IMG/VR virus record: IMGVR_UViG_3300025543_005580
Span: 1 to 64,000 of that record
Origin: a virus
DNA: 64,000 nucleotides
Strand: one strand, 5' to 3'
Below are positions 19,638 through 64,000 of this stretch, piece after piece (position 1 is the first letter of the stretch; each line of letters begins with the position of its first letter). A model generated the notes under the pieces. It was not told where the DNA came from and ran no database searches. It worked only from the letters and a program-made list of their open reading frames with translations. Both the position numbers and the translations under genes were made by a program.

Positions 19638-19668
19638 TAAATATACAAAAAGAGGTTGGATAAACCAA
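19638..19668 (-). promoter_or_regulatory. Bacteroidota-type promoter (TTG-N20-TATATTTA)
   Basis: Plus strand TAAATATA at 19638-19645 and CAA at 19666-19668. Confidence 0.7.
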
Positions 19669-19672
19669 CCCC
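19647..19672 (-). terminator. Intrinsic terminator after the recA-like gene, overlapping the promoter
   Basis: Minus-strand RNA GGUUGG-UUUAU-CCAACC-UCUUUUU. Confidence 0.6.
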
Positions 19673-19680
19673 ATTTGCAT

Positions 19681-20763: not shown

Positions 20764-20777
20764 AATGTATTAATTAA

Positions 20778-36806: not shown

Positions 36807-38006
36807 TTAAAGGTTAAGTATTTTATTAATTGATTCGATTACTTTTGTAGGTTTTATTGTTTTAGTACATTCAAACTGTCTTGTTGTATCTTTATGATCA
36901 GGGCACCATTCCCAATCACCTGGATTTAGCCATTCTCTATTAAAACATCCTGTACATACATTTTCATCATAGTTAAATACGCGTTCACAACTTAAAAACT
37001 CACTATATGGTAAACTAAATCCTGATATTAGAATTGTTGGAGTACCAACTGCCCATGATAACCAACTTAAACCACTTCCTAATCCTATAAACCCAGAAGC
37101 ATATTTTAAATCTACCATTCTGTCTTCAATCGGATAATCTCCAGTTTTATCAATTACTCCTGTTAATGTTCCCCCTAATTTAGAATCATGCCAATCATCT
37201 CCTAAACGTTCATGGGTAATCATTACTACTTTATATCCTTGATCTTTTAAATAGTTAATTATTGTTTGCCATCCTCCTGGATGATTCCAATACTTGGCAT
37301 GTGCCGAAGCGTGTGGGGCTATACAAACGTATTTCCCATCAATTTGTTGTCCTTTATTAGGTATTACAATACGTGGTTTTATTTCTGTATAATCTAAACC
37401 TAAAATAGAGGTTGAGGATTGTCCTAATGGGTGTTTTTTAAACTCAATAGGAATTTTATTTTCATTAACTGTCCTATCTTCATTATAATGCCAACCAATA
37501 CTATACATTGCGTATATGTTATTAACTTCAGTTCCTGGTTTTATAAATTCGATTTCAGGATATTCTGCTTCAAACCATTCATTGTGGAATGTAGAACATA
37601 CTACTTTACACTTGTGTTTTTTTCTAAATTCATCTACATAAGGAAACCAAGCTAATGTATCACCTAAGGCTGATGAATCTAAATGGATATAAACTCTTTT
37701 ATCCGTAGCATCATATAAGTATTCAAAATCAATTTCATTTGTTTCTTTATTAACAACTTCAATTTTCCACTTAACAAAATATTCAATATTAGCCTTAGTC
37801 CACATATTATTAGATACATCACAAGTATAACGAACTCTACCTGTCTTATGATCAATAAAATTAACAGTATACTTAGCTTCATTAGATCCTAAAACTTCTA
37901 AAAATGCTCCTTTTACAAAATTAAATTTAAAGGTGTTTGTACCTTTTTTAAAAGGTATATTTAATTGTTCTAAATTATTGTATTCTTGAATTAATACTTC
38001 TTTCAT
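36807..38006 (-). CDS. Aah/TibC-like protein O-heptosyltransferase family (GT-B)
   Basis: ALGDTLAWFPY..EF...H, AKYWN.P.GW, FIGLGSGLSWLSW..GTP..LISGFS.P..EF, and Cys cluster CTGC...CP.H....FEC. Confidence 0.85.
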   Translation of the reverse strand: MKEVLIQEYNNLEQLNIPFKKGTNTFKFNFVKGAFLEVLGSNEAKYTVNFIDHKTGRVRYTCDVSNNMWTKANIEYFVKWKIEVVNKETNEIDFEYLYDATDKRVYIHLDSSALGDTLAWFPYVDEFRKKHKCKVVCSTFHNEWFEAEYPEIEFIKPGTEVNNIYAMYSIGWHYNEDRTVNENKIPIEFKKHPLGQSSTSILGLDYTEIKPRIVIPNKGQQIDGKYVCIAPHASAHAKYWNHPGGWQTIINYLKDQGYKVVMITHERLGDDWHDSKLGGTLTGVIDKTGDYPIEDRMVDLKYASGFIGLGSGLSWLSWAVGTPTILISGFSLPYSEFLSCERVFNYDENVCTGCFNREWLNPGDWEWCPDHKDTTRQFECTKTIKPTKVIESINKILNL

Positions 38007-40905: not shown

Positions 40906-40911
40906 AAATTT

Positions 40912-41505: not shown

Positions 41506-41508
41506 GTA

Positions 41509-43400: not shown

Positions 43401-43421
43401 AAAACTTATTTAATTTAAAAC

Positions 43422-43452
43422 TTAATATAATAACAAATTATTACATATCCAA
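43422..43452 (-). promoter_or_regulatory. Bacteroidota-type promoter variant (TTG-N20-TATATTAA) upstream of the modification cluster
   Basis: Plus strand TTAATATA at 43422-43429 and CAA at 43450-43452; same spacing as the other sites. Confidence 0.55.
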
Positions 43453-43453
43453 G

Positions 43454-46400
43454 TTAGTTTATTTTTTTAGCAATAAGGTGTGCACTTTTTATATAATGTT
43501 GGTTTGTTGCAGAAGCAAATGTATACATAGCTATTATATCACCATTATTAAGGTAAAAACAACCATATACTTTAGCAGCACATTGGTGACTAGTAGTTGA
43601 ACCTGTTACTTTAGTTCTACCTGAGGATAAATAGTTGTTTGTATTGGTTGTTTTAACTAATTTAACAATAGTAGCTCCTAAATCTTGAGATCCATTGTTT
43701 TCTTCAACATTTACAATACCTTCTATATAATACATTCCGGTAACACCAATTTGTAAACCACCATATGTTTGACCACCTACAACTACTGGGGTTACATTAC
43801 CATAAGGTAATGATATTATATTCATTGGTGCTGTTACTGCTGTAGCATCTGAGGTTCCTATAGTAACATTTAATCCTTGTCCCCATATACCATCACCACC
43901 TTCAGATAAACCACTATATCCTGAAGGACCTGTAGGACCATTTGAACCTGTATATCCTGTATATCCTTGGGCTCCTCTAGAACCTTGAGGTCCAGGATTA
44001 TTTGTACCTTGATATCCTTGAGCACCTTGAGAACCTGTTGGATTACTACCTTGATATCCTTGAACACCTTGAGAACCTTGGGGACCTCTACCTCCCTGTG
44101 CACCACTAGGTGCCCCTGGGTCTCCTGTAGGTCCTTGGGTACCTTGAGCACCTCTTGGATTTGGACCTGCTACTCCTTGATAACCTTGACTACCACGACC
44201 ACCTTGACCACCTTGAGAACCTGTACCACCTTGTGGACCGCGGTTTGCTCCTTGATAACCCTGAACACCTGGATTACCATTAGGAGTAGGACCAGATTGA
44301 CCTTGACCACCTCTACCACCTTGAGGACCTTGATAACCCTGAAATCCTCTAGTAGTATTTGCTGTACCTTGACTACCTTGATCACCTTGAGGACCTCTAT
44401 ATCCTGTTGGTTGATTACCTTGATATCCTTGAGGTCCTTGAGTTCCTTGAGAACCATTTGGCCCTCCATGTCCTTGATACCCTGTACTAACTCCTTGGGT
44501 ACCTTGAGGTCCAGTTGGTCCTATATATCCTGTTGGTTGATTACCTTGATATCCTTGAGGTCCTTGAGGACCTCTTGGTGTTGGTGATCCTTGAGTACCT
44601 TGAGGTCCTTTAACTCCACTTTGGGGTCCTTGATAACCTTGAGGTCCTATATATCCTGTTGGTTGATTACCTTGATATCCTTGAGGTCCTTGAGGACCTC
44701 TACCTGTACCAGGACCTGTGTATCCTTGAGGTCCTTGGGGACCACCTTGATAACCCTGAGGTCCTTGATAACCTCTATATCCTGTTGGTTGATTGCCTTG
44801 GTAACCCTGAGGTCCTTGAGGACCTCTACCTGTACCTGGTCCTGTATATCCTTGTGGTCCTTGAGGACCACCTTGATAACCTTGAGGTCCTTGATATCCT
44901 TGGTATCCAGTTGGTTGATTACCTTGATATCCTTGAGGTCCTTGAGGACCTCTACCTGTACCAGGACCTGTGTATCCTTGAGGTCCTTGGGGACCACCTT
45001 GATAACCCTGAGGTCCTTGATATCCTTGGGCTCCTGTAGGTTGATTACCTTGATAACCTTGAGGTCCTCTATATCCTTGATAACCTTGAGACCCACCTCC
45101 ACCTTGATCACCTTGTGGTCCTCCTTGGTAACCTTGAGAACCACCAAATCCTGTTCTACCACCTAATCCTGTTGGTGATGTACCTTGATATCCTTGAGGT
45201 CCTTGCGTTCCTCTACCACCTTGACCACCTTGTGGTCCTGTATTACCACCTTGATAACCTTGTGAACCCTGATTTCCTTGTGAACCTCTAGGTTCTGGTC
45301 CTCTAATACCTTGGTAACCTTGTGATCCCTGACCACCTCGTCCTCCTTGAGGTCCTCGATAACCATTAACACTACCTTGATAACCCTGAGGTCCTTGGTA
45401 ACCTAAATATCCTTGTAAGCCCTGGTAACCTTGGGCACCACCTCCACCTTGAGTACCAACAGTAGTATTTTGTCTACCTACACTATCAAATAACTCATTT
45501 GGATCAATCTGCCAAGTTGATGATCCTGGTTTTTGCCAGTATACTCGTAAACCATCTCCACCACCATATTCTTGCATTCTAGCTTTAAAGTTGTAAGCTA
45601 CACCTGCTGTTAACGAAATGGTACCTGTTGTAGTACCAATAGGAGGTGTACCTCTACCGCCGTAGAAGCCACATACAAACGTATTATTAATGTATAAATC
45701 ACCGGAATCATCCGATTCACATGAGAATGTATATGTACCTGTTTCTGTTGGTACAAATGTACCAAATACTACAAATGAGTAATAGTCACCTGAGTTTGGA
45801 ACAGGGACACCTGCATTTACGAGTGTGGTATAGTTTAAAAAGTCAATACCAACAGTAGCATCAATTTGACCTGAACCAACCAATGATGTGGCTGCTTGGG
45901 TTGTATTTAATAAAATATCAAATTGGGGTGAATTTAATGGGTAATTAGTAAATCCGTTATTAATATAATCTGCTGAGTTACCATTACCATAGTGGGTAGA
46001 AAATACTTCATATGATAATATACCTACATCTTTTTTAATACCTTGATATCCTTGAGGCCCTTGATAACCTTGTGAACCACCAACACCATTTATACCTATA
46101 ATTCCTTCATAACCTTGAACTCCTTGACTACCTTGAGCACCACCTGCACCTGGAGAAGGGGTTGCCCCTGTATTTCCTCCTTGTCCTGGGTTGCCACCTA
46201 AACCGGCACGTCCTAAATTTCCTGTTCTACCTCCAAAACCTTGAATTCCTTGACTACCTTGACCACCTTGAGATCCATTAGGACCTGAGTATCCAGAATG
46301 ACCAAAAAGACTATCTGTTTTTCGAAGTGTCTTAGATACAGGGTCTACTGTAAGATATGTTTCTATGCTAGGATGTGTTGTTATAGTTTGGATATCAGCA

Positions 46401-46489
46401 TATGATCCTGATAGTATAGCGTTTTCCACAATTGATTGTGTAGTAGAACCACTAACATATATCTTATTTCCAGTTATTTCTAAACCCAT
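43454..46489 (-). CDS. Collagen-like fibre protein with an inserted PA14 domain and a C-terminal beta-rich (C1q/BclA-like) head
   Basis: N-terminus MGLEITGN; GPQ/GYQ triplets; PA14 motifs G.F.P..TGTYTF...SDD..L.IN and W..PG; head motif VTGMYYI. Confidence 0.85.
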   Translation of the reverse strand: MGLEITGNKIYVSGSTTQSIVENAILSGSYADIQTITTHPSIETYLTVDPVSKTLRKTDSLFGHSGYSGPNGSQGGQGSQGIQGFGGRTGNLGRAGLGGNPGQGGNTGATPSPGAGGAQGSQGVQGYEGIIGINGVGGSQGYQGPQGYQGIKKDVGILSYEVFSTHYGNGNSADYINNGFTNYPLNSPQFDILLNTTQAATSLVGSGQIDATVGIDFLNYTTLVNAGVPVPNSGDYYSFVVFGTFVPTETGTYTFSCESDDSGDLYINNTFVCGFYGGRGTPPIGTTTGTISLTAGVAYNFKARMQEYGGGDGLRVYWQKPGSSTWQIDPNELFDSVGRQNTTVGTQGGGGAQGYQGLQGYLGYQGPQGYQGSVNGYRGPQGGRGGQGSQGYQGIRGPEPRGSQGNQGSQGYQGGNTGPQGGQGGRGTQGPQGYQGTSPTGLGGRTGFGGSQGYQGGPQGDQGGGGSQGYQGYRGPQGYQGNQPTGAQGYQGPQGYQGGPQGPQGYTGPGTGRGPQGPQGYQGNQPTGYQGYQGPQGYQGGPQGPQGYTGPGTGRGPQGPQGYQGNQPTGYRGYQGPQGYQGGPQGPQGYTGPGTGRGPQGPQGYQGNQPTGYIGPQGYQGPQSGVKGPQGTQGSPTPRGPQGPQGYQGNQPTGYIGPTGPQGTQGVSTGYQGHGGPNGSQGTQGPQGYQGNQPTGYRGPQGDQGSQGTANTTRGFQGYQGPQGGRGGQGQSGPTPNGNPGVQGYQGANRGPQGGTGSQGGQGGRGSQGYQGVAGPNPRGAQGTQGPTGDPGAPSGAQGGRGPQGSQGVQGYQGSNPTGSQGAQGYQGTNNPGPQGSRGAQGYTGYTGSNGPTGPSGYSGLSEGGDGIWGQGLNVTIGTSDATAVTAPMNIISLPYGNVTPVVVGGQTYGGLQIGVTGMYYIEGIVNVEENNGSQDLGATIVKLVKTTNTNNYLSSGRTKVTGSTTSHQCAAKVYGCFYLNNGDIIAMYTFASATNQHYIKSAHLIAKKIN
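44660..45060 (-). repeat. 126-bp (42-aa) tandem repeat, about 3 copies
   Basis: TACCTGTACC recurs at 44701, 44827 and 44953. Confidence 0.9.
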
Positions 46490-46503
46490 TATATTATTTT
46501 ATT

Positions 46504-46511
46504 ATAAATAT
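46504..46511 (-). promoter_or_regulatory. Putative late-promoter motif ATATTTAT (representative copy)
   Basis: Same motif just upstream of starts at 9631, 30144, 32861, 34488, 36512, 36788 and 49032; ATATGTAT variants at 12642 and 33907. Confidence 0.55.
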
Positions 46512-46512
46512 T

Positions 46513-49026: not shown

Positions 49027-49039
49027 TATATATAAATAT

Positions 49040-51598: not shown

Positions 51599-51607
51599 AT
51601 TCGTTTA

Positions 51608-54600
51608 TTAAATATTAATGTAAGCATTAATAACATACGAGTCACCACTTCCGCTTTCGAGAGCTTTTGCAAATACTACATCTTGTAAGTTTTCGTTAAT
51701 CATTTCTTCTCTCGTTATTGCTTTAGCATGTCCTACTTTATCTGAAGTAACAAGATAATCACCTTCTTTTACTATTCCAATTACAAGTACTGGTTCAGCA
51801 CCTTGAACAATTGGAATATTTTTATCAGGTACCATGACTCCCATTCTCATGTGATCTTTTTCGTTTGTACATGGAACTAAATCTCCATCTTTCCAAACCA
51901 TTACAGTACCTAATTCGTGATTATTATTATCTTCTTTATTATTACCTGCTAAGTTCTGTTCAAATATACCACAAGTATTAAATGCGATTGCCCAAACATC
52001 TCTCCAACATAAATCTGGTCTACCAATATCCCAAACTCTATCTTGTATTGGGTTCATATTACCATCCCAATTGAAATCTGGGGCTGTATAATTGGCAACT
52101 GTTAATCTATTTGGTCTACCTGCGTTGTAACTAACAATTTCACCGTTATTAGCTGTATTGCTCCAGTTAATAGCAATATCATTAGCATTAACAGTAATAC
52201 CTGTACCTGAACCTATGTTTAATGTTCTATCAGTTGATAACGCACCTCCACCAGTTAAACCTGAACCTGCGATAATTGACACGTAAGTACCGCTTGTACC
52301 CACATTACCTGATATACCACTAGTACCATCTATACCTGAAGTTCCTGATGTTCCTGAACCACCTGATACTCCACTAGCACCACCAACACCTGAGGTACCG
52401 TTTGAACCTGTTGAACCTGATGTTCCTGATAATCTACTTAATCCGCTTGTTCCAGCTACACCACTTGTACCAATTGTACCTGAAGAACCGCTAGTTCCAC
52501 TAGTAGCGCTTAATCCTGATAAACCAGCATTACCTGTTGTACCATTTGAACCTGTTGAACCACTAGTTCCAGATACTCTACTTAATCCATTTGTACCATT
52601 ATTACCTGTTGTACCATTTGAACCTGAACTACCTGATGTTCCAGATAATTTACTCAATCCATTTGTACCAGTATTACCTGAAGTACCATTTGAACCTGTT
52701 GATCCACTTGTTCCTGATGCTCTACTTAATCCATTTGTACCAGTATTACCTGAAGTACCTGATGAACCACTAGTACCTGAAGTTCTACTAGCACCTGAGG
52801 CACCATTGACACCTGATGTACCGTTTGAACCTGAACTACCTGAAGTACCTGATAATCTAGATAATCCATTACCACCATTAACACCTGAAGTACCATTTGA
52901 ACCACTTGATCCTGAAGTACCTGATACTCTAGATAATCCTGAAGTTCCAGCTACACCGCTTGTACCTATTGTACCTGAACTTCCTGAAGTTCCTGATGTA
53001 GCACTTAATGCTGATTGTCCTGCATTTCCAATAGTACCATTTGAACCTGATGAACCTGAAGTTCCTGAAGTTCCTGAAGTTCTACTAATACCTGAAGCAC
53101 CATTAACACCTGAGGTACCATTTGAACCACTTGATCCTGAAGTACCTGATACTCTACTTAATCCTGAAGTACCATTAACACCTGAAGTACCATTTGAACC
53201 TGTTGATCCACTTGCACCTGATGTTCTGCTTAATCCGGAAGTACCTGCAACTCCACTTGTACCAATTGTGCCTGATGAACCACTTGTTCCACTAGTAGCA
53301 CTTAATCCTGATAAACCAGCATTACCTGTTGTACCATTTGAACCTGTAGAACCTGATGTTCCAGAAGTTTTACTAGCACCTGAAACACCATTATTACCTG
53401 ATGTACCTGATGAACCACTTGTTCCTGAAGTTCTAGATATTCCGGAGGCACCATTATTACCATTTGTACCTGTTGAACCTGAAGAACCACTAGTTCCACT
53501 AGTTCTTGAAGCACCTGAAGCACCATTATTACCTGATGTACCTGAACTACCTGTTGAACCACTAGTTCCGGAAACATTACTTGTTCCGTTAGCACCTGCA
53601 TTTCCTGAAGTACCATTTGAACCTGTAGAACCACTAGTTCCGGAAACATTACTTGTTCCGTTAGCACCTGCGTTTCCTGAAGTACCATTTGAACCTGTAC
53701 TACCTGAAGTACCTGATACTCTAGATAATCCTGAAGTTCCAGCTACACCGCTTGTACCTATTGTACCTGAAGATCCTGAAGTACCACTTGTAGCGCTTAA
53801 TCCTGATAAACCAGCATTACCTGTTGTACCATTTGAACCTGATGAACCTGAAGTACCACTTGAACCTGAAGTTCTACTAATACCTGAAGCACCGTTAACA
53901 CCTGAGGTACCGTTTGAACCACTAGAACCACTTGTTCCAGAGAATCTACTTAATCCATTTGTACCATTATTACCTGTTGTACCATTTGAACCTGAACTAC
54001 CTGATGTTCCTGATAATCTACTTAATCCGTTTGTTCCAGCTACCCCACTTGTACCTATTGTACCTGAAGATCCTGATGTACCTGAAGTAGCACTTAAACC
54101 ACTTTGTCCTGCGTTTCCAGTAGTACCTGTTGAACCTGATGAACCTGATGTTCCAGAAGTTCTACTAGCACCTGAAGCACCATTAGTACCATTTGAACCA
54201 CTTGATCCTGAAGTACCTGATATATTACTTGTTCCGTTATTTCCAGCTACACCACTTGTACCATTTGAACCAGTTGAACCTGAAGTACCGGATACATTAC
54301 TTGTTCCATTAGCTCCTGCGTTTCCTGAGGTACCATTTGAACCTGTTGATCCAGAAGTTCCGGACAATGCACTTAATCCGTTTGTACCCGCAACTCCACT
54401 TGTACCTACTGTACCTGAAGATCCACTAGTTCCACTTGTAGCGCTTAATCCTGATTGTCCTGCATTACCTGTAGTACCGTTTGAACCGGTTGAACCTGAA
54501 GTACCTGATGTTTTACTTAATGCACTAGCTCCAGCATTTCCTGTTGTACCTGATGAACCTGATGAACCGCTTGTTCCTGATGTAGCACTTAATGCACTAG

Positions 54601-57600
54601 CACCTGCAACACCTGCGTTTCCTGATGTACCATTTGAACCTGTTGATCCGGAAGTACCTGAAGTCTTACTTAGTCCGGAAGTACCTGCTAATCCGCTTGT
54701 ACCAATTGTACCTGATGAACCACTAGTTCCTGATGTAGCACTTAATCCTGATAAACCAGCATTACCTGTTGTACCATTTGAACCTGTAGAACCTGATGTT
54801 CCAGAAGTACCACTTGTAGCACTTAGAGCACTTGCTCCTGCATTTCCTGCAGTACCGTTTGAACCAGTTGAACCTGAAGTTCCCGATGTTCCTGAAGTAG
54901 CACTTAGTGCTGAAGCACCTGCGTTTCCAGCTGTACCATTTGAACCAGTACTACCTGATGTACCTGAAGTACCTGCTGTAGCACTTAATCCTGAAGTACC
55001 TGCTACTCCTGAAGTACCTATTGTACCTGATGAACCTGAAGTTCCACTAGTAGCACTTAATCCTGATAAACCAGCATTACCTGTTGTACCATTTGAACCT
55101 GTAGAACCTGATGTTCCAGAAGTACCACTTGTAGCACTTAGAGCACTTGCTCCTGCATTTCCTGCAGTACCGTTTGAACCAGTTGAACCTGAAGTTCCCG
55201 ATGTTCCTGAAGTAGCACTTAGTGCTGAAGCACCTGCGTTTCCAGCTGTACCATTTGAACCAGTACTACCTGATGTACCTGAAGTACCTGCTGTAGCACT
55301 TAATCCTGAAGTACCTGCTACTCCTGAAGTACCTATTGTACCTGATGAACCTGAAGTTCCACTAGTAGCACTTAATCCTGATAAACCAGCATTACCTGAA
55401 GTACCATTTGAACCTGAAGAACCAGATGAACCAGATGAACCACTTGTTCCTGATGTAGCACTTAATGCGCTATCACCTGCGTTTCCAGCTGTACCATTTG
55501 AACCTGATGAACCGCTTGTTCCTGATGTATTACTTAATGCACTTGCACCTGCATCTCCGGCGGTACCTGATGAACCTGTACTACCTGATGTTCCACTTGT
55601 TTCACTATTACCTGAAGTTCCAGCTACACCTGATGTACCTACTGTACCTGAAGAACCACTAGTACCTGATGTAGCACTTAAACCACTTTGTCCTGAGTTT
55701 CCTGATGTACCGTTTGAACCAGTTGAACCTGAACTACCAGATGTACCTGAAGTAGCACTTAAGGCTGAAGCTCCTGCGTTTCCAGCAGTACCATTTGAAC
55801 CTGAACTTCCTGAAGTACCTGAAGTAGCACTTAGTGCTGAAGCTCCTGCATCTCCTGAAGTACCACTTGAACCTGTTGAACCTGATGTTCCACTTGTTTC
55901 GCTATTTCCTGAAGTACCTGCAACTCCACTTGTACCTATTGTACCTGAGCTTCCTGAAGTACCTGAAGTTGAACTTAATGCACTTTGTCCTGCATTTCCA
56001 GCAGTACCATTTGAGCCACTTGAACCACTAGTTCCTGATGTAGCACTTAATGCGCTAGCACCTGCATTTCCTGCTGTACCTGATGAACCTGTAGAACCAC
56101 TTGTTCCACTGGTGGCACTTAGAGCACTTACTCCTGCTTCACCTGCTGTACCTGATGAACCTGTACTACCTGATGAACCTGAAGTTCCTGAAGTTCCTGC
56201 AGATGCACTAGCACCTGAAGTACCTGCAACTCCACTTGTACCTACTGTACCTGAAGAACCACTAGTACCTGATGTAGCACTTAAACCACTTTGTCCTGCG
56301 TTTCCTGATGTACCATTTGAACCTGTACTACCTGATGAACCTGAAGTACCTGCTGATCCTGATGTTGCACTAGCACCTGAAGCACCTATACTACCGTTTG
56401 AACCTGTACTACCTGATGTACCTGAAGTACCTGATGTATTACTAATACCTGATTCACCTGCGTTACCAGACGTTCCTGTTGAACCTGTAGAACCTGATGT
56501 TCCTGAAGTTGAACTATTTCCTGATGTACCAGCAACTCCACTTGTACCAATTGTACCTGAAGAACCTGAAGTACCACTTGTAGCACTTAGTGCACTTTGT
56601 CCTGCATTTCCAGCAGTACCGTTTGAACCTGAACTACCAGATGTACCTGATGTTGCACTTAAAGCACTTGCACCAGCATCTCCAGCTGTACCTGAACTAC
56701 CAGATGAACCACTTGTTCCTGAAGTAGCACTTAAAGCTGAAGCACCTGCTTCACCTGCTGTACCATTTGAACCAGTTGAACCTGATGTACCTGAAGTACC
56801 TGCTGATCCTGATGTTGTACTATTACCGCTAGTACCAGCAACTCCACTAGTACCTACTGTACCTGAACTACCAGATGTACCTGATGTTGCGCTTAATCCT
56901 GATTGACCTGCATTACCTGAAGTACCATTTGAACCCGTTGATCCACTTGTTCCACTAGTTGCACTTAATGCACTAGCACCTGCATCTCCAGCAGTACCTG
57001 ATGAACCTGACGAACCTGAAGTACCTGAAGTAGCACTTAAAGCTGAAGCACCTGCGTCTCCTGCTGTACCTGTTGATCCTGATGAACCTGAAGTTCCTGA
57101 TGAACCTGAACTTGCACTATTTCCTGACGTACCTGCAACTCCTGAAGTACCAATTGTACCTGAAGATCCTGAAGTACCACTTGTAGCACTTAGTGCACTT
57201 TGTCCTGCATTACCTGAAGTACCATTTGAGCCACTTGAACCGCTTGTTCCGGATGTAGCACTTAATGCGCTAGCACCTGCATTTCCTGCTGTACCACTAG
57301 AACCAGTTGAACCTGATGTACCCGAAGTACCTGAAGTTGAACTTAATGCACTAGCACCTGCTTCACCTGCTGTACCATTTGAACCAGTTGAACCTGAAGT
57401 ACCTGAAGTACCTGAAGATCCTGATGAAGCACTGGCACCTGAAGTTCCAGCAACTCCACTAGTACCTACTGTACCTGAAGAACCGCTAGTTCCACTTGTA
57501 GCGCTTAATCCTGATTGACCAGCATTTCCATTTGTACCGTTTGATCCAGTACTACCTGATGATCCACTTGTACCACTAGTAGCACTTAAGGCTGAAGCTC

Positions 57601-60600
57601 CTGCTTCACCTGCTGTACCATTTGAACCTGAAGAACCACTTGTTCCACTAGTTGCACTTAGAGCACTTGCTCCTGCTTCACCTGAAGTACCTGAGCTACC
57701 CGTTGAACCACTAGTTCCTGATGTTTCGCTATTTCCTGAAGTACCTGCAACTCCACTTGTACCTATTGTACCTGAAGAACCTGAAGTACCTGAAGTAGCA
57801 CTTAAACCACTTTGACCATCATTACCTGTAGTACCGTTTGAACCACTTGAACCTGATGTTCCTGAGGTTGCACTTAGGGCTGAAGCACCTGCATCTCCAG
57901 CAGTACCTGAACTACCTGTTGAACCTGAGGTTCCGCTAGTAGCACTTAAAGCACTAGCACCTGCTTCACCTGCTGTACCATTTGAACCAGTTGAACCTGA
58001 AGTACCTGAAGTTCCTGAAGAACCTGAACTTGCACTATCTCCACTTGTTCCAGCTACACCTGATGTACCTATAGTACCTGATGAACCACTAGTTCCTGAA
58101 GTAGCACTTAATCCTGATTGTCCTGCATTACCTGAAGTACCATTTGAACCTGTACTACCTGAACTACCAGATGTACCTGAAGTTGCACTTAAGGCTGAAG
58201 CTCCGGCTTCACCTGCTGTACCACTTGAACCACTAGAACCACTTGTTCCAGATGTATTACTTAGAGCCGAAGCACCTGCATCTCCAGCAGTACCTGAACT
58301 ACCTGTTGAACCTGAGGTTCCACTTGTTTCGCTATTTCCTGAAGTACCTGCAACTCCACTTGTACCAATTGTACCTGAAGAACCTGAAGTACCCGATGTT
58401 GCACTTAGTGCTGATTGACCAGCATTCCCCGCCGTACCATTTGAACCAGATGAACCACTAGTTCCTGAAGTAGCACTTAAAGCACTTGCTCCTGCATCTC
58501 CTGCAGTACCTGAACTACCTGTTGAACCGCTTGTTCCACTTGTTTCACTATTACCTGAAGTTCCAGCTACACCTGATGTACCGTTTGTACCCGTACTACC
58601 TGATGAACCTGAAGTACCTGCTGATCCTGATGTTGCACTAGCACCTGAAGTGCCTGCTACTCCTGAAGTACCAATTGTACCTGAAGATCCTGAAGTTCCA
58701 CTTGTAGCACTTAGAGCACTTTGTCCTGCGTTTCCTGCTGTACCATTTGAACCACTAGATCCAGATGTACCTGATGTAGCACTTAAAGCTGAAGCACCTG
58801 CGTCTCCTGCTGTACCACTAGAACCTGTTGAACCTGAAGTACCTGAAGTAGCACTTAAAGCTGAAGCACCTGCTTCACCTGCTGTACCACTAGAACCAGT
58901 TGAACCTGAAGTTCCTGATGAACCTGAACTTGCACTATTTCCTGAAGTTCCAGCTACACCTGAGGTACCTACTGTACCTGAACTTCCTGAAGTTCCACTT
59001 GTAGCACTTAATGCGCTTTGTCCTGCGTTTCCTGCTGTACCATTTGAACCACTTGAACCACTTGAACCACTTGTTCCACTTGTAGCACTTTCAGCGGAAG
59101 CACCTGCTTCACCTGCTGTACCTGATGAACCACTTGAACCTGAAGTACCACTTGTAGCACTTAAAGCGCTTTCTCCAGCATCACCTGCTGTACCTGTTGA
59201 ACCTGATGAACCTGAAGTTCCTGATGAACCTGAACTTGCACTATTTCCTGACGTACCTGCAACTCCTGAAGTACCAATTGTACCTGAAGAACCGCTAGTT
59301 CCACTTGTATCACTTAAGCCACTTTCACCTGCATTACCTGATGTACCTGTTGAACCACTAGAACCCGAAGTACCACTTGTTGCACTATCTCCTGACTCAC
59401 CTGTTGTACCTGATGATCCTGTAGAACCACTTGTACCTGATTCTCCACTTGTAGCTGCAATTCCATTTTCTCCTGAAGTACCTGATGAACCTGTTGTTCC
59501 ACTAGTAGCACTAATTCCTGAAGTACCTGCAATTCCGTTTTCACCACTTGTACCTGATGAGCCTGTTGTACCTGAGGTGGCACTATCACCACTTGTTCCA
59601 GCTACACCGCTTGTACCTATTGTACCTGATGAACCACTAGTTCCACTCGTAGCACTTAGTGCACTTTGACCAGCATTACCTGCTGTACCATTTGAACCTG
59701 AAGAACCACTAGTTCCACTAGTAGCACTATCGGCTGAAGCACCTGCTTCACCTGCTGTACCACTTGAACCACTAGAACCACTTGTACCACTTGTCTCACT
59801 TAAGGCAGAAGCACCAGCTTCACCTGCTGTACCTGAACTACCTGTTGAACCGCTTGTTCCACTTGAACCACTTGTTTCACTATTTCCTGATGTACCTGCA
59901 ACTCCTGAAGTACCTATTGTACCTGATGAACCTGAAGTACCTGAAGTAGCGCTTAAACCACTTTCTCCAGCATTACCATTCGTTCCTGTTGAACCTGAAG
60001 AACCACTAGTTCCACTTGTTTCACTATTTCCTGATTGACCAGCACTACCTGAAGAACCTGTAGAACCTGAAGTTCCTGATTCTCCACTAGTTGCAGCAAC
60101 TCCATCAGCACCTGAAGTACCTGATGAACCTGTTGTTCCACTAGTAGCACTTATACCACTTGTTCCAGCAATTCCATCAGCACCTGCTGAACCTGAACTA
60201 CCTGTTGTACCTGAGGTGGCACTATCTCCACTTGTTCCAGCTACACCACTTGTACCTATTGTACCTGAAGATCCTGATGTACCTGAAGTAGCACTATTTC
60301 CTGATTGACCTGCGTTTCCAGCAGTACCATTTGAACCCGTTGATCCACTTGTACCACTTGTGGCACTTAAAGCGGAAGCGCCTGCATCTCCTGCTGTACC
60401 TGATGAACCTGAACTTCCTGAGGTACCTGAAGTAGCACTTAAAGCTGAAGCACCTGCGTCTCCTGCTGTACCTGAACTACCTGATGAACCTGAAGTTCCT
60501 GATGAACCTGATGAAGCACTAGCACCTGAAGTACCTGCAACTCCACTTGTACCTATTGTACCACTTGAACCAGCAGTACCTGAAGTAGCACTTAAACCAC

Positions 60601-63600
60601 TTTGTCCTGCGTTTCCAGCAGTTCCTGTTGAACCACTTGAACCTGAAGTACCACTTGTAGCACTATTTCCTGATTCTCCTACGGTACCGTTTGATCCTGT
60701 TGAACCACTTGTTCCTGATTCTCCACTTGTACCTGAAATTCCATCAGCTCCATTTGAACCTGATGAACCTGTTGTACCTGAAGTTGCACTTGCGCCACTT
60801 GTACCTGAAATTCCATCAGCTCCATTTGAACCTGATGAACCTGTTGTACCTGAAGTTGCACTTGCGCCACTTGTACCATTAATTCCGCTAGTACCTATTG
60901 TACCTGATGAACCGCTTGTTCCGGATGTAGCACTTAAACCACTTTGTCCTGCGTTTCCAGCAGTTCCTGTTGAACCACTTGAACCGCTTGAACCGCTTGT
61001 TCCACTAGTAGCACTATCGGCTGAAGCACCTGCGTCTCCTGCTGTACCTGATGAACCTGATGAACCACTTGTTCCTGATGTTGCACTATCTGCTGAAGCA
61101 CCTGCTTCACCTACTGTACCACTTGAACCTGTTGAACCACTTGTTCCTGATGTTGCACTATCTCCACTTGTACCTGCGACTCCTGAAGTACCTATTGTAC
61201 CTGAGCTACCTGAAGTACCTGAAGTAGCACTTAAACCACTTTGTCCTGCGTTTCCAGCAGTTCCTGTTGAACCACTTGAACCTGAAGTACCTGAAGTGGC
61301 ACTATTTCCTGATTGACCTGCAATTCCATTATCTCCTGAAGTACCACTTGAACCAGTTGTACCTGAAGTACCTGATTCACCTGAAGTTCCTGCAACTCCA
61401 TCAGCACCTGATGAACCTGAGCTACCTGTTGTTCCACTTGTAGCACTTTCACCACTTGTTCCAGCAATTCCATCAGCTCCGTTTGAACCTGATGAACCTG
61501 TTGTTCCACTAGTAGTACTTTCACCTGAAGTACCTGCTACACCTGAGGTACCTATTGTACCTGATGAACCACTAGTTCCTGAAGTTGCACTTTGAGCAGA
61601 TTGACCTGCGTTACCTGATGTACCAGTTGAACCACTAGTACCACTAGTTCCACTTGAAGCACTATCTCCTGAATTACCAGCAGTACCTGAACTACCTGTT
61701 GTACCTGAAGTACCTGATTCACCGCTAGTTGCTGCTATTCCATTTTCACCTGAAGTACCTGAAGAACCTGTTGTTCCTGAAGTACTTGATTCGCCACTTG
61801 TGCCTGCAACTCCATCAGCACCTGCTGAACCTGAACTACCTGTTGTACCTGAGGTGGCACTATCTCCACTTGTACCAGCAACTCCTGAAGTACCTATTGT
61901 ACCTGAAGAACCTGATGAACCGCTTGTAGCAGAAGCACCTGATTGACCTGCATTTCCTGAAGTACCTGAAGAACCATCTTCACCACTTGTACCTGAAGTA
62001 CCTGTAGCACCTGATTGCCCAGCGGCACCTGTTGTACCTGAAGATCCGTCAATACCACTTGTACCTGATGTACCATCAACTCCTGAAGTACCAACTGTAC
62101 CTGAAGCACCTGATGTTCCACTTGTTGCTGAAACACCTGACTGACCTGCATTTCCTGAAGTACCTGTAGAACCGGTTGAACCTGAAGTTCCTGAGGTAGA
62201 ACTTAAACCGCTTTCTCCAGCAATTCCATTATCCCCTGATGTACCTGAGCTACCTGTTGTACCTGATGTACCACTAAATCCACTAATTCCATCATTACCT
62301 GCTTCACCTGTTGTACCACTAGAACCAGTTGAACCTGAAGTACCTGATTCACCTGATGTACCTGATGTACCTGAATCTCCTGAAGTACCTGAAACTCCTG
62401 AAGTACCTATTGTACCACTTTCTCCAGACGTACCTGAAGTAGCTGTTAACCCTGATTGACCTGCATTTCCTGAAGTACCTGAAGAACCATCTTCACCACT
62501 TGTACCTGAAGTACCTGTAGCACCTGATTGTCCAGCGGCACCTGTTGAACCTGATGAACCATCTATACCACTAGTACCTGAGGTACCATCAACTCCACTT
62601 GTACCTATTGTACCTGAGTCTCCTGAAGTACCTGAAGTGGCACTATTTCCTGATTGACCTGCATTTCCTGAAGTACCTGAAGAACCATCTTCACCACTTG
62701 TACCTGAAGTTCCATCGGCTCCTGATTGTCCAGCAGCACCTGTTGTACCTGAAGATCCGTCAATACCACTTGTACCTGATGTACCTGCAACTCCTGAAGT
62801 ACCTATTGTACCTGAGTCTCCTGACGTACCTGAAGTACCTGCAACTCCGCTTTGTCCATCGGCACCATTTGTTCCTGATGTACCTGATTGTCCTGTTGTA
62901 CCTGAAGAACCAGCTTGTCCTGATGTACCTGATGTAGCTGCTACATATCCTAGTGTTCCTGTAATAGGATCGTATGTTACTACATTTACTATATCTTGTA
63001 CAGGTAAAGTATCTACATTAAAACTACCTGTTACTTCTAAACTACCTGAAATTATTGCTGAACCAGTATATGGGAAAGCTCCTATACCTGATGTACCTGA
63101 GGTAGCAGCAATTTGACCTGTAGTAGTAATTACATATGAGTAATGTGAAGTACCTTCAGTATAGAAAGTTGTATTTAGATTTTGGTTTTCGTTGTTTTTA
63201 ACCCAAATCTCAACCATCATACGATATGATGGATCAATAGTACTTCCTACTAATGTAATATCAGTTTCAAGTAATACTGGGGTTGTATTATTGTTATTCC
63301 ATCCTATTAGTGTGGGTTGAGAATTACCTAGGGTTTGTAATACGTTACCTGAACCGTCTGTAATTTTTAATGTAATAAATAATTCTACATCATCGTTTAT
63401 AGCTGGTTTAGTAGCCCATAATTTAAATTGTTGAACACCACCTGGGATTACATTAAATCCAAATGGAGTTGAAATATATGTTTGTAACTTAGTATCTGTG
63501 TTTTGAATAGCAGATACAGTAACTGATTGTTCGGCAGATACTGTTACATCTTTAGATAATTGTTTATAGGGTGATACTTCAACTACTGATTCATTAAAGT

Positions 63601-64000
63601 AGTAAATAGCACCTGTTGTAAGACCATCTCTACCGGATGTACCTGATTCACCTGATGTACCTGATGTACCTGATGTACCTGATGTACCTGAAGTACCTGA
63701 AGTACCATTAGCACCTGAAGTACCTGCTGTAGCTGCTGCTCCACCAGTAATATCTACTAATACTCCGTTTGATCCCGAAGTTGTTACTACAACACCAGAT
63801 CCGGTAAAATTAATATCAGCATTATTTTTAGACACTAACGAACCGGTATAATATATATCAGTTTGTGTTAAATCATCTAGGAAATTTTGAACTTCAATTT
63901 GATAAGCAGCAAATTCTTGACCTGTATTTAAATCTGTAAATCCTGGGAAATTAGATTTAAACATTGGTGCTAAACTTTCGTTTTCTGAAAGAGCAACAAC
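51608..64000 (-). CDS. Giant Gly/Ser/Thr-rich fibre protein (at least 4118 aa, 5' end probably outside the window) with a C-terminal tail-fibre/chaperone-like domain
   Basis: About 3500 aa of G-T-S/G-S-S triplets; C-terminal AGSGLTGGG, P..D..WDIG....W.DVW and GDYLVTS...GHA...VFAKALE. The 12 codons upstream of the track ATG (VVALSENESLAP) remain open to position 64000. Confidence 0.88.
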   Translation of the reverse strand, partial: VVALSENESLAPMFKSNFPGFTDLNTGQEFAAYQIEVQNFLDDLTQTDIYYTGSLVSKNNADINFTGSGVVVTTSGSNGVLVDITGGAAATAGTSGANGTSGTSGTSGTSGTSGTSGESGTSGRDGLTTGAIYYFNESVVEVSPYKQLSKDVTVSAEQSVTVSAIQNTDTKLQTYISTPFGFNVIPGGVQQFKLWATKPAINDDVELFITLKITDGSGNVLQTLGNSQPTLIGWNNNNTTPVLLETDITLVGSTIDPSYRMMVEIWVKNNENQNLNTTFYTEGTSHYSYVITTTGQIAATSGTSGIGAFPYTGSAIISGSLEVTGSFNVDTLPVQDIVNVVTYDPITGTLGYVAATSGTSGQAGSSGTTGQSGTSGTNGADGQSGVAGTSGTSGDSGTIGTSGVAGTSGTSGIDGSSGTTGAAGQSGADGTSGTSGEDGSSGTSGNAGQSGNSATSGTSGDSGTIGTSGVDGTSGTSGIDGSSGSTGAAGQSGATGTSGTSGEDGSSGTSGNAGQSGLTATSGTSGESGTIGTSGVSGTSGDSGTSGTSGESGTSGSTGSSGTTGEAGNDGISGFSGTSGTTGSSGTSGDNGIAGESGLSSTSGTSGSTGSTGTSGNAGQSGVSATSGTSGASGTVGTSGVDGTSGTSGIDGSSGTTGAAGQSGATGTSGTSGEDGSSGTSGNAGQSGASATSGSSGSSGTIGTSGVAGTSGDSATSGTTGSSGSAGADGVAGTSGESSTSGTTGSSGTSGENGIAATSGESGTSGTTGSSGTAGNSGDSASSGTSGTSGSTGTSGNAGQSAQSATSGTSGSSGTIGTSGVAGTSGESTTSGTTGSSGSNGADGIAGTSGESATSGTTGSSGSSGADGVAGTSGESGTSGTTGSSGTSGDNGIAGQSGNSATSGTSGSSGSTGTAGNAGQSGLSATSGTSGSSGTIGTSGVAGTSGDSATSGTSGSTGSSGTVGEAGASADSATSGTSGSSGSSGTAGDAGASADSATSGTSGSSGSSGSTGTAGNAGQSGLSATSGTSGSSGTIGTSGINGTSGASATSGTTGSSGSNGADGISGTSGASATSGTTGSSGSNGADGISGTSGESGTSGSTGSNGTVGESGNSATSGTSGSSGSTGTAGNAGQSGLSATSGTAGSSGTIGTSGVAGTSGASASSGSSGTSGSSGSSGTAGDAGASALSATSGTSGSSGSSGTAGDAGASALSATSGTSGSTGSNGTAGNAGQSGNSATSGTSGSSGTIGTSGVAGTSGDSATSGTTGSSGSAGADGIAGTSGISATSGTTGSSGTSGADGVAATSGESGTSGSTGSSGSAGQSGNSETSGTSGSSGSTGTNGNAGESGLSATSGTSGSSGTIGTSGVAGTSGNSETSGSSGTSGSTGSSGTAGEAGASALSETSGTSGSSGSSGTAGEAGASADSATSGTSGSSGSNGTAGNAGQSALSATSGTSGSSGTIGTSGVAGTSGDSATSGTTGSSGTSGENGIAGTSGISATSGTTGSSGTSGENGIAATSGESGTSGSTGSSGTTGESGDSATSGTSGSSGSTGTSGNAGESGLSDTSGTSGSSGTIGTSGVAGTSGNSASSGSSGTSGSSGSTGTAGDAGESALSATSGTSGSSGSSGTAGEAGASAESATSGTSGSSGSSGSNGTAGNAGQSALSATSGTSGSSGTVGTSGVAGTSGNSASSGSSGTSGSTGSSGTAGEAGASALSATSGTSGSTGSSGTAGDAGASALSATSGTSGSSGSNGTAGNAGQSALSATSGTSGSSGTIGTSGVAGTSGASATSGSAGTSGSSGSTGTNGTSGVAGTSGNSETSGTSGSTGSSGTAGDAGASALSATSGTSGSSGSNGTAGNAGQSALSATSGTSGSSGTIGTSGVAGTSGNSETSGTSGSTGSSGTAGDAGASALSNTSGTSGSSGSSGTAGEAGASALSATSGTSGSSGSTGSNGTSGNAGQSGLSATSGTSGSSGTIGTSGVAGTSGDSASSGSSGTSGTSGSTGSNGTAGEAGASALSATSGTSGSTGSSGTAGDAGASALSATSGTSGSSGSNGTTGNDGQSGLSATSGTSGSSGTIGTSGVAGTSGNSETSGTSGSTGSSGTSGEAGASALSATSGTSGSSGSNGTAGEAGASALSATSGTSGSSGSTGSNGTNGNAGQSGLSATSGTSGSSGTVGTSGVAGTSGASASSGSSGTSGTSGSTGSNGTAGEAGASALSSTSGTSGTSGSTGSSGTAGNAGASALSATSGTSGSSGSNGTSGNAGQSALSATSGTSGSSGTIGTSGVAGTSGNSASSGSSGTSGSSGSTGTAGDAGASALSATSGTSGSSGSSGTAGDAGASALSATSGTSGSTGSNGTSGNAGQSGLSATSGTSGSSGTVGTSGVAGTSGNSTTSGSAGTSGTSGSTGSNGTAGEAGASALSATSGTSGSSGSSGTAGDAGASALSATSGTSGSSGSNGTAGNAGQSALSATSGTSGSSGTIGTSGVAGTSGNSSTSGTSGSTGSTGTSGNAGESGISNTSGTSGTSGSTGSNGSIGASGASATSGSAGTSGSSGSTGSNGTSGNAGQSGLSATSGTSGSSGTVGTSGVAGTSGASASAGTSGTSGSSGSTGSSGTAGEAGVSALSATSGTSGSTGSSGTAGNAGASALSATSGTSGSSGSNGTAGNAGQSALSSTSGTSGSSGTIGTSGVAGTSGNSETSGTSGSTGSSGTSGDAGASALSATSGTSGSSGSNGTAGNAGASALSATSGTSGSSGSTGSNGTSGNSGQSGLSATSGTSGSSGTVGTSGVAGTSGNSETSGTSGSTGSSGTAGDAGASALSNTSGTSGSSGSNGTAGNAGDSALSATSGTSGSSGSSGSSGSNGTSGNAGLSGLSATSGTSGSSGTIGTSGVAGTSGLSATAGTSGTSGSTGSNGTAGNAGASALSATSGTSGTSGSTGSNGTAGNAGASALSATSGTSGTSGSTGSNGTTGNAGLSGLSATSGTSGSSGTIGTSGVAGTSGLSATAGTSGTSGSTGSNGTAGNAGASALSATSGTSGTSGSTGSNGTAGNAGASALSATSGTSGTSGSTGSNGTTGNAGLSGLSATSGTSGSSGTIGTSGLAGTSGLSKTSGTSGSTGSNGTSGNAGVAGASALSATSGTSGSSGSSGTTGNAGASALSKTSGTSGSTGSNGTTGNAGQSGLSATSGTSGSSGTVGTSGVAGTNGLSALSGTSGSTGSNGTSGNAGANGTSNVSGTSGSTGSNGTSGVAGNNGTSNISGTSGSSGSNGTNGASGASRTSGTSGSSGSTGTTGNAGQSGLSATSGTSGSSGTIGTSGVAGTNGLSRLSGTSGSSGSNGTTGNNGTNGLSRFSGTSGSSGSNGTSGVNGASGISRTSGSSGTSGSSGSNGTTGNAGLSGLSATSGTSGSSGTIGTSGVAGTSGLSRVSGTSGSTGSNGTSGNAGANGTSNVSGTSGSTGSNGTSGNAGANGTSNVSGTSGSTGSSGTSGNNGASGASRTSGTSGSSGSTGTNGNNGASGISRTSGTSGSSGTSGNNGVSGASKTSGTSGSTGSNGTTGNAGLSGLSATSGTSGSSGTIGTSGVAGTSGLSRTSGASGSTGSNGTSGVNGTSGLSRVSGTSGSSGSNGTSGVNGASGISRTSGTSGTSGSSGSNGTIGNAGQSALSATSGTSGSSGTIGTSGVAGTSGLSRVSGTSGSSGSNGTSGVNGGNGLSRLSGTSGSSGSNGTSGVNGASGASRTSGTSGSSGTSGNTGTNGLSRASGTSGSTGSNGTSGNTGTNGLSKLSGTSGSSGSNGTTGNNGTNGLSRVSGTSGSTGSNGTTGNAGLSGLSATSGTSGSSGTIGTSGVAGTSGLSRLSGTSGSTGSNGTSGVGGASGVSGGSGTSGTSGIDGTSGISGNVGTSGTYVSIIAGSGLTGGGALSTDRTLNIGSGTGITVNANDIAINWSNTANNGEIVSYNAGRPNRLTVANYTAPDFNWDGNMNPIQDRVWDIGRPDLCWRDVWAIAFNTCGIFEQNLAGNNKEDNNNHELGTVMVWKDGDLVPCTNEKDHMRMGVMVPDKNIPIVQGAEPVLVIGIVKEGDYLVTSDKVGHAKAITREEMINENLQDVVFAKALESGSGDSYVINAYINI
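54741..55390 (-). repeat. Near-perfect 315-bp (105-aa) tandem duplication inside the giant fibre gene
   Basis: CTTAATCCTGATAAACC recurs at 54741, 55056 and 55371, and the intervening sequence looks identical by eye. Confidence 0.85.

Follow-up and report, generated by a model that had tools for sequence, protein, structure and literature searches.

Why should a bacteriophage place six enzymes of sugar transfer, methyl transfer and oxidation between its fiber genes and its tail sheath gene, and what are the targets of these enzymes? The question is raised by a stretch of 64,000 nucleotides from an uncultured aquatic phage, here called the window, that forms the first 64 kb of the 111,989-bp IMG/VR virus record IMGVR_UViG_3300025543_005580, which is estimated to be 69% complete. 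In it, collagen-like fiber genes, built of Gly-X-Y triplets, are followed by genes for a family 2 glycosyltransferase fused to a methyltransferase (GT2-MT), a predicted 2-oxoglutarate (2OG)/Fe(II) oxygenase of the DUF6445 family, a second 2OG/Fe(II) oxygenase resembling prolyl 4-hydroxylases (P4H-like), two GT4-type glycosyltransferases of 653 and 314 amino acids (aa), and a homolog of the bacterial protein O-glycosyltransferases TibC and Aah. This order, from Gly-X-Y genes through six enzymes to the tail sheath, had been proposed in an original prediction made from the letters of the DNA; an open reading frame (ORF) map and Pfam scans bear it out, and the enzyme identities proposed at the same time all hold. 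Comparative genomics now makes it fairly probable that the phage enzymes modify the neighboring collagen-like fibers. The individual modification steps, with their chemistry, substrates and location on the virion, are put forward with less confidence than this reading as a whole.

Every gene of the fiber, enzyme and tail block lies on the minus strand. In the order of transcription, the late operon runs from portal, protease, major head protein, PhoH and a few small ORFs to collagen-like genes of 675, 4333, 852, 837 and 1011 aa, and from there to the six enzymes, a conserved small ORF (orf82), the sheath and the tube. The prediction had counted four fiber genes, and four are indeed present in the window; there are five in all, the 675-aa gene lying beyond the window, and the 4333-aa giant starts outside it. 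The window cuts away the first 203 codons of the giant, and the ATG at 63964 is internal because the gene runs on to genome position 64609. Long runs with glycine at every third residue (81-1079 bits with the Collagen hidden Markov model) account for 52%-72% of the residues, and the proteins may form trimeric triple helices.

The fibers fall into two classes, one proline-free and the other with proline at the X position. The giant represents the first class, and the 675-aa gene is similar in type, with Thr or Ala at X, Ser, Pro or Ala at Y, and proline at Y in 15% of triplets. The giant protein consists of an N-terminal globular part of ~560 aa with one short Gly-Thr-Ser run, a Gly-Thr/Ser-Ser core of 3550 aa, and a C-terminal domain of ~220-226 aa. 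Its core has Thr or Ser at X and Ser at Y, and contains 1042 serines, 599 threonines and not a single proline. Its 133 Gly-X-Y runs (window 51900-62930) are separated by 132 interruptions, each of exactly 3 or 6 residues and most of them ATS or ALSATS. The triplets stay in phase throughout, glycine being replaced, mostly by alanine, at roughly every eighth triplet. With 0.286 nm per residue, the standard rise of the collagen helix, the core would be ~1 micrometer long if helical. The ESM atlas links the C-terminal domain of the giant to the Peptidase_G2 intramolecular-chaperone domain of phage fibers and spikes (0.93, 187 features), which is taken as a lead only. In the second class, the three shorter genes of the window, proline occupies X in 0.22 (852 aa), 0.22 (837 aa) and 0.20 (1011 aa) of triplets, and Y is Gln, Thr or Arg (Q 0.45, T 0.20 and R 0.12 in the 852-aa protein, Q 0.60 in the 1011-aa protein), as the prediction had it for these genes. 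All three share an MGLxIT N-terminal domain of ~50 residues at 34-37% identity, and their C-terminal globular domains are mutually unrelated. The 837-aa fiber matches PHROG tail-fiber families at up to E 1.6e-87, a match driven by its repeat. Lysine is not common at Y and is nearly absent altogether (24 of 4333 residues in the giant, and 3, 8, 15 and 3 residues in the 852-, 837-, 1011- and 675-aa proteins), which excludes the hydroxylysine route used by animals and mimivirus.

Among the enzymes, the last one points to a protein substrate. To our knowledge, the sole activity known for the TibC/Aah family is the cytoplasmic O-glycosylation of serine in repetitive proteins. In a phmmer search against the PDB, residues 18-396 of the phage protein align with residues 16-386 of TibC (4rap) at E 5.5e-67, TibC being the sole PDB match, and its score of 336.4 bits with the NCBIfam equivalog TIGR04414 clears the cut-off of 200; the RfaQ model reaches 20 bits, its cut-off being 467. 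By sequence, the protein is a genuine TibC/Aah homolog. TibC employs Asp110 as its base, Thr226, Lys230, Arg286 and Trp305 in sugar binding, and Cys 339, 342, 358 and 370 in an iron finger (PMC4358343). The equivalents of the catalytic and sugar-binding residues in the window enzyme are D116, S234, K238, R296 and W315, and among 104 distinct phage homologs the Asp, the Ser/Thr and the Trp are kept in 104, the Lys in 103 and the Arg in 72. Of the 104, 103 retain the iron-finger cysteines (C351, C354, C368 and C380). The stereoselectivity residue, Pro300 in TibC and Ser294 in Aah, is Gly in the window enzyme.

Whether such an enzyme belongs with collagen-like fibers can be judged from a comparison set of ~200 related phage loci. 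Relatives of the TibC-like protein were found on 321 viral contigs, of which the best 80 were examined. The order TibC-like gene, orf82, sheath, tube is kept in 77 of these 80 loci, and the pair of GT4 genes is found upstream on every contig that extends far enough. Among the best 80, the ORF immediately ahead of the enzyme cluster is always collagen-like, and wherever no accessory cassette (see below) intervenes, it is a proline-free G(T/S/N)S collagen. As adjacency among close relatives could be plain synteny, the comparison was extended to distant homologs. At 34-45% identity, TibC homologs still adjoin Ser/Thr collagens, often in another order or on another strand; examples are Microcystis phage Mel-JY01, the huge phage LR756501 and the loci L095, L169-172, L184/185, L197 and L202/203. 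In the cultured Mel-JY01, where a Gly-Thr-Ser collagen ORF adjoins a GT4-TibC fusion, collagen matches flank the enzyme gene on both sides and occur nowhere else in 190 kb, and the complete genome of Flavobacterium phage immuto has neither a TibC-like enzyme nor a collagen match. The TibC region of distant phages also displays gene fusions of at least five architectures, namely FkbM methyltransferase with GT4; GT4, TibC-like and FkbM; GT4 and TibC-like; FkbM, GT32-like, GT4 and TibC-like; and GT8, GT25, GT4, TibC-like and FkbM. In LR756501, it is a domain like the short GT4 that is fused to the TibC-like domain. Such fusions argue that the activities belong to one pathway. Of 401 sampled Bacteroidota genomes, only 1 has the enzyme, on a phage-like contig. 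Conserved adjacency, domain fusions and shared presence or absence in relatives thus lend support to the earlier proposal that the enzymes act on the adjoining fibers.

Between the giant fiber and the first GT4, relatives either have or lack GT2-MT, DUF6445 and the P4H-like gene, and the accessory cassette of three Gly-Pro-Gln-type collagens, GT2-MT and both oxygenases is present or absent as a unit. Without the cassette, the collagen beside the enzymes is proline-free; with it, and where the contig suffices, adjacent collagens carry proline at X in 0.20-0.78 of triplets. The relative G001 (loci L152-L159, 93% complete) is instructive in having two proline-free collagens followed by GT4, GT4 and the TibC-like gene, and no P4H, DUF6445, GT2-MT or proline collagen anywhere. 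These absences were searched for with protein queries and positive controls; a family search with PF13640 had missed the window genome's own gene. An extra gene of ~1.9 kb stands in G001 between the TibC-like gene and orf82 (positions 74380-76285), and the genome has a PA14-like region at 106935-107435, though the PA14-bearing collagen is absent. Of 60 callable TibC loci, 35 have neither a P4H-like gene nor a proline collagen and 19 have both, as against 6 discordant loci, in five of which the P4H-like gene stands without a proline collagen (three being contig-edge artifacts) and in one of which the reverse holds. Among loci with P4H relatives of at least 40% identity, 26 of 42 have a proline collagen (18 of 25 where 5 kb or more of upstream sequence is present); at more distant P4H-relative loci the number is 0 of 16. 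Many loci that were found with the P4H-like protein and lack the TibC core follow the same proline-collagen pattern. Because the P4H-like gene travels specifically with proline-containing collagens, proline hydroxylation looks like the purpose of the cassette. The original prediction had considered hydroxylation largely unavailable to collagens with proline at X, and had assigned their stabilization to glycosylation of Ser and Thr. Neither point is supported: the P4H-like gene is missing where the fibers are all proline-free, and stabilization by Ser/Thr glycosylation fits the proline-free giant instead.

Variants of the cassette occur as well. L195 and L196 have DUF6445 and GT2-MT without the P4H-like gene, beside proline-poor Ser/Thr collagens, from which it appears that these two enzymes are perhaps independent of proline hydroxylation. 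In L103-L105, L116, L122 and L127, DUF6445 bears an extra N-terminal domain of ~100 residues and GT2-MT is 600-632 aa long. The cassette of L103-L105 comes with proline collagens and no TibC-like or GT4 gene, and L127 has a proline collagen too.

None of the six enzymes has a transmembrane-like segment. GT2-MT (414 aa) contains a VDHDD motif of the DxD type. In the DUF6445 protein, H103, D105, H185 and R199 are invariant in 11 relatives, and the predicted model (pLDDT 80) has as its top Foldseek matches OGFOD1, PHD2, Tpa1 and the P. putida P4H (E 2e-6 to 1e-4, TM 0.45-0.57); it also resembles some amino-acid hydroxylases or halogenases. Judged by its facial triad and the double-stranded beta-helix fold of the model, this protein is a 2OG/Fe(II) oxygenase. 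The P4H-like protein has the arrangement HxD...H plus a basic residue in H117, D119, H174 and R184, which are invariant in 17 relatives. The 653-aa GT4 has a GT-B fold in residues 1-321, with E265 and E273 (EX7E spacing) invariant, and alpha/beta and beta-sandwich domains in its C-terminal part (model pLDDT 82.6). VIA-align, which covered residues 1-321, gives Z 19-21 for the GT-B fold and Z 21 to sucrose-phosphate synthase, BshA, WbnH and PimA. The 314-aa protein may be called GT4-like from its score above the Pfam Glycos_transf_1 cut-off (31.1 against 26.4 bits). For the DUF6445 protein, the C-terminal half of the 653-aa GT4 and the 314-aa GT4, sequence searches of the PDB had no useful outcome. 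In the closest relatives, L091:2744-5365 and L090:10601-13966, an FkbM methyltransferase domain is fused to the N-terminus of the long GT4, the window version being without FkbM, and most other relatives of the long GT4 are ~885 aa long, with an extra C-terminal domain. A GT25-like motif suspected in these longer relatives was not confirmed by Pfam in L032, and GT25 was present only in the fusion of L117.

Taken together, these features suggest the following scheme. A core module would consist of the proline-free fibers (4333 and 675 aa) and the trio of 653-aa GT4, 314-aa GT4 and TibC-like enzyme. At a late stage of infection the TibC-type enzyme, acting in the cytoplasm of the host, would place a first sugar from a nucleotide-sugar donor on the serines, perhaps also the threonines, of the repeats, and the two retaining GT4s would extend the glycan thus begun. 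In the accessory cassette, with its three Gly-Pro-Gln/Thr paralogs, the P4H-like enzyme would hydroxylate proline, mostly at X, the DUF6445 oxygenase may hydroxylate another position or residue of the same chains, and GT2-MT may attach a methylated sugar either to threonine or to the hydroxyl so created. Bann and Bachinger reportedly found in 2000 that 4-hydroxyproline at X, with threonine at Y, can stabilize the triple helix, which would suit hydroxylation at this position. The modifications would stabilize or solubilize very long, proline-poor helices and give the fibers a glycan surface. A stabilizing role is chemically plausible because (Gly-Pro-Thr)10 is a random coil unless its threonines are galactosylated, upon which it forms a triple helix; Thr triplets are also over-represented in viral collagens (PMC11923368). 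A more specific version is only a tentative suggestion, namely that the cassette is a portable kit that hydroxylates proline at X and then glycosylates and methylates, with GT2-MT as the capping enzyme, and that the giant core folds only after dense TibC-primed O-glycosylation; on this version, the phage would make the first hydroxyproline-containing, enzyme-stabilized collagen known from inside a bacterium.

Several observations weigh against modification of the fibers by these enzymes. Adjacency in a conserved late operon can come from shared ancestry alone, and the locus counts given above are not independent. Mapped onto the TibC tree, the P4H-like gene switches between presence and absence at least 8 times, but only 7 independent pairs are available; in ~4.4 of these the collagen type shifts along with it, in 0.4 it shifts the opposite way, and in 2.2 it does not differ. 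The median sign-test p is 0.125, meaning that the direction is consistent and the power insufficient, and the link of the P4H-like gene to proline collagens, which is plain in the raw counts, is not decided by this test. There are also exceptions: in L095, P4H stands beside a proline-poor fiber; L101, L116, L122 and L125 have P4H and no collagen within 7-10 kb; in L193, small proline collagens occur and P4H is absent; and the huge phage L150 has a TibC homolog with no collagen within 20 kb. By sequence, the P4H-like protein is nearest to PKHD-type hydroxylases, the substrate of which is not known, rather than to collagen P4Hs: in profile searches, PKHD-type Sbal_3634 and PiuC score E 5e-10 to 1e-9, the prolyl 4-hydroxylase 6iuq 6.5e-4, and human P4H-TM and C-P4H alpha-2 0.17-0.33. 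The regular, in-phase replacement of glycine in the giant core suggests that its structure may not be a canonical triple helix.

Two further points of this kind concern the TibC-like enzyme. The thumb tip of TibC, Phe265-Val266, is hydrophobic and builds the active dodecamer, and its mutation to Asp yields an inactive dimer (PMC4358343). In the window enzyme this tip is Asp270-Asp271, beside a 5-residue insertion, and in homologs it is D, N, K, E or a gap, the alignment of the loop being uncertain. With this thumb tip and a Gly as stereoselectivity residue, the phage enzyme probably has another quaternary structure than the TibC dodecamer, and its donor sugar cannot be assumed. The sugar donor of the TibC/Aah family is ADP-heptose, and no ADP-heptose pathway gene and no PfkB kinase were found in the 112 kb that make up 69% of the genome; nor does the phage have an autotransporter, the substrate type of this family. 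The sole cytidylyltransferase-like match is a 783-aa multidomain protein at genome 97626-99977 (L204:13626-15977), with an N-terminal adenylyl/cytidylyltransferase-like motif and only weak adenylyltransferase scores. Mel-JY01 has a gene for a "cytidylyltransferase like protein", with 3 kb between it and the TibC fusion.

What else could the enzymes do? They might modify other proteins of the virion, such as capsid, sheath, baseplate or other fibers, with the collagens as mere neighbors in the late operon. In mycobacteriophages, glycosyltransferases encoded among structural genes do glycosylate virion proteins (Freeman et al. 2023, as cited in PMC12582341), and L150 and L116/L122/L125 have the enzymes and no nearby collagen. 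Such targets leave unexplained why the P4H-like gene tracks proline collagens, why the TibC-like gene tracks Ser/Thr collagens across gene orders and lineages, and why phage immuto is without both enzyme and collagen. Other virion targets are therefore unlikely, while surviving best among the alternatives.

Less likely again is an auxiliary function of the transferase genes, by which the phage would remodel the envelope of its host, either the O-chain of lipopolysaccharide (LPS) or the capsule, to block superinfection or change a receptor. Glycosyltransferases among the tail-fiber genes of SAR11 myophages (pelagimyophages) have been read in this manner (PMC7029224), and GT2, GT4 and GT9 are families typical of LPS and polysaccharide synthesis. 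The GT9 member of the window, however, is a TibC/Aah equivalog and not of the WaaC/F/Q type, as its RfaQ score attests, and membrane segments are absent from all six proteins. An envelope function also has no place for two oxygenases and their link to proline collagens. The cluster is moreover conserved rather than hypervariable, and the single sampled Bacteroidota genome with the enzyme has it on a phage-like contig.

The absence of any functional link, with enzyme and collagen genes as independent cargo in a recombination-prone island, has a lower probability still. It can draw on the non-significant contrast test and on the frequent gain and loss of the modules, with at least 8 changes. It does not account for enzyme domains being fused together in at least five architectures, for a pairing that survives rearrangement in distant lineages, or for the consistent direction of the co-variation. 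Hypermodification of phage DNA, in which bases are hydroxylated and then glycosylated in a TET/JBP-like manner, is very improbable: phages do couple 2OG oxygenases with glycosyltransferases for this purpose, and T4 DNA alpha-glucosyltransferase is among the GT-B structural matches (Z 17.7), but the oxygenases match PF13640, DUF6445 and prolyl-hydroxylase-type folds and not TET_JBP, the genes lie in the late structural operon and not with the replication genes at 7-22 kb, and the TibC equivalog is a protein glycosyltransferase.

The motif ATATTTATA, on the coding strand, lies 5-40 nucleotides upstream of the fiber, orf82, sheath, tube and 894-aa genes; apart from the copy listed in the table, it occurs at window positions 49031, 36511, 34487, 33054 and 30143 and at genome positions ~64650 and ~66760. 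It is a late-promoter candidate, distinct from TATAAATA of T4, a late-promoter word that was tried and is not enriched (19 found against 12.5 expected). None of the six enzyme genes has ATATTTATA upstream, and the enzymes follow the fibers by 4-base overlaps or short spacers; they are thus probably read through from the fiber promoters. The 4-base overlaps join the stop of GT2-MT to the start of DUF6445, and the 314-aa GT4 gene to both its neighbors, the 653-aa GT4 and the TibC-like gene. Contigs identical to parts of GT2-MT, P4H, both GT4s and the TibC-like gene are present in the RNA libraries of three studies (DNase-treated in one case); the enzyme block is partly covered and DNA carry-over is possible, making this weak evidence of expression.

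The proposed system has counterparts in several known ones. In TibC-TibA and Aah-AIDA-I of E. coli (bacterial autotransporter heptosyltransferases, BAHT; PDB 4rap/4rb4), the enzyme gene likewise adjoins that of a long, repetitive, Ser-rich protein, there a surface protein that it hyperglycosylates, and the enzymes match over their full length above the equivalog cut-off. The partner here is a viral collagen-like Gly-Thr/Ser-Ser fiber in place of a beta-helical autotransporter; the phage enzyme differs in thumb tip, insertion and stereoselectivity residue, as described above, and works with, or elsewhere is fused to, GT4 and methyltransferase domains. Mimivirus, too, encodes collagen-like proteins, and a 2OG oxygenase and glycosyltransferases inferred to modify these proteins ahead of their assembly into surface fibers, among them the lysyl hydroxylase/glucosyltransferase L230 and the glucosyltransferase R699, which act in collagen modification (PMC9546862). 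Its route goes through hydroxylysine, whereas the phage fibers have 3-24 Lys per protein and an oxygenase that co-varies with proline; the main phage transferase is of the Ser-directed TibC type, and in a bacterial host all steps would be cytoplasmic.

Further likeness is found in BclA of the Bacillus exosporium and the cuticle collagen of Riftia, which have proline-poor or hydroxyproline-free Gly-X-Thr/Ser triplets and a C-terminal globular domain, and in which the triple helix relies on O-glycosylation of threonine (PMC11923368). The giant core of the phage differs in having no proline at all and Ser rather than Thr at Y, its transferases are unrelated to the rhamnosyl/anthrose pathway of BclA, and the viral genes are clustered with the putative substrate. 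The GtfA/GtfB and SdgA/SdgB systems of Gram-positive cocci resemble the phage locus as clusters of soluble GT-B/GT-A enzymes, which there build a Ser O-glycan stepwise on a giant repeat protein in the cytoplasm. The 653-aa GT4 matches both GtfA (Z 18.6) and SdgB (Z 17.2) in structure. The phage is distinguished by a priming enzyme of the TibC type, a collagen-like substrate and the lack of a dedicated secretion system. In mycobacteriophages, finally, transferases also sit inside the structural operon and act on the phage's own virion proteins (Freeman et al. 2023, as cited in PMC12582341); the targets there are capsid and tail-tube proteins, and no collagen-like fibers, TibC-type enzyme or oxygenases appear.

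The coordinates of the features are collected in the table. By its sheath protein, the nearest cultured relative of the phage is Flavobacterium phage immuto (53.5% identity), and megablast of the enzyme block against cultured phages gave no match. The small orf82 is matched by tblastn in the corresponding place of almost all related loci, and by no Pfam or PHROG family. A replication and nucleotide block at window 7170-21596 encodes thymidylate synthase, both subunits (large and small) of class I ribonucleotide reductase, a DnaB-like helicase, a 5'-3' exonuclease, a RecA/UvsX-like protein, a gp32-like protein and an Amidase_3 lysin, the replication genes being T4-like. The 17,317-bp phage-like contig L206 (NZ_JABDKL010000107.1), binned in a Winogradskyella metagenome-assembled genome (GC 33%), carries fiber, GT4, GT4, TibC-like, sheath and tube genes in this same order; it points weakly to a flavobacterial (Flavobacteriaceae) host, unless its place in that genome is an artifact of binning.

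Table. Features of the fiber, enzyme and tail block; positions are those of the window unless marked as genome positions.
Feature	Position	Strand	Basis
Giant collagen-like fiber gene	51608-64000 (full gene, genome 51608-64609)	-	Pfam Collagen 1079 bits, 50 stretches
Collagen-like paralog, 852 aa, Gly-Pro-Gln type	49040-51598	-	Pfam Collagen 114 bits
Collagen-like paralog, 837 aa, Gly-Pro-Gln / Gly-Tyr-Thr type	46513-49026	-	Pfam Collagen 175 bits
Collagen-like paralog, 1011 aa, PA14 domain at aa 234-328	43454-46489	-	Pfam Collagen 81 bits, PA14 40.7 bits
GT2 fused to SAM-dependent methyltransferase, 414 aa	42156-43400	-	Pfam Glycos_transf_2 45.3 bits, Methyltransf_11 31.9 bits
DUF6445 2OG/Fe(II) oxygenase (predicted), 216 aa	41509-42159	-	Pfam DUF6445 33.2 bits
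P4H-like 2OG/Fe(II) oxygenase, 197 aa	40912-41505	-	Pfam 2OG-FeII_Oxy_3 (PF13640) 52.5 bits
Long GT4, 653 aa	38944-40905	-	Pfam Glycos_transf_1 41 bits
Short GT4-like, 314 aa	38003-38947	-	Pfam Glycos_transf_1 31.1 bits, cut-off 26.4
TibC/Aah-family (BAHT) O-glycosyltransferase homolog, 399 aa	36807-38006	-	GT9 and TibC_1st; TIGR04414
orf82, conserved 82-aa ORF between TibC-like gene and sheath	36538-36786	-	tblastn match in relatives
Tail sheath	34511-36487	-	Pfam Phage_sheath_1, Phage_sheath_1C
Tail tube	33974-34462	-	Position and homology to immuto tube locus
Fifth collagen-like gene, 675 aa, GTG start, outside the window	genome 64710-66737 (L160:710-2737)	-	Own N- and C-terminal domains
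ATATTTATA motif copy, late-promoter candidate	46503-46510	-	Upstream of fiber gene

Parts of this picture have been known separately: pairs of a transferase and a repeat adhesin, virion glycosylation in mycobacteriophages, and collagen modification in mimivirus. No published description of a phage system of collagen-like proteins and prolyl hydroxylase, or of TibC in a bacteriophage, was found, and the literature on Mel-JY01 and PiuC likewise yielded none. New are the combination in bacteriophages and a proposed new class of TibC substrate, together with the two-module anatomy, the link between P4H and proline fibers, G001 as a comparator without the cassette, the residue-level comparison with TibC, and the test by independent contrasts. 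If the enzymes do modify the fibers, many aquatic phages would make glycan-coated collagen fibers with enzymes of their own, and the annotation of glycosyltransferases in phage "host-recognition" regions, which are now read as modifiers of LPS, would change. The TibC family, now represented by a few enterobacterial adhesin systems, would come to include a large clade of viruses. It is often stated that prokaryotic systems have no collagen prolyl hydroxylation, and this view would be challenged. The two modules would also constitute a compact set of cytoplasmic enzymes, compatible with E. coli, with which recombinant collagens could be hydroxylated or glycosylated, and would offer a natural test of whether glycosylation can substitute for hydroxyproline in stabilizing the triple helix.

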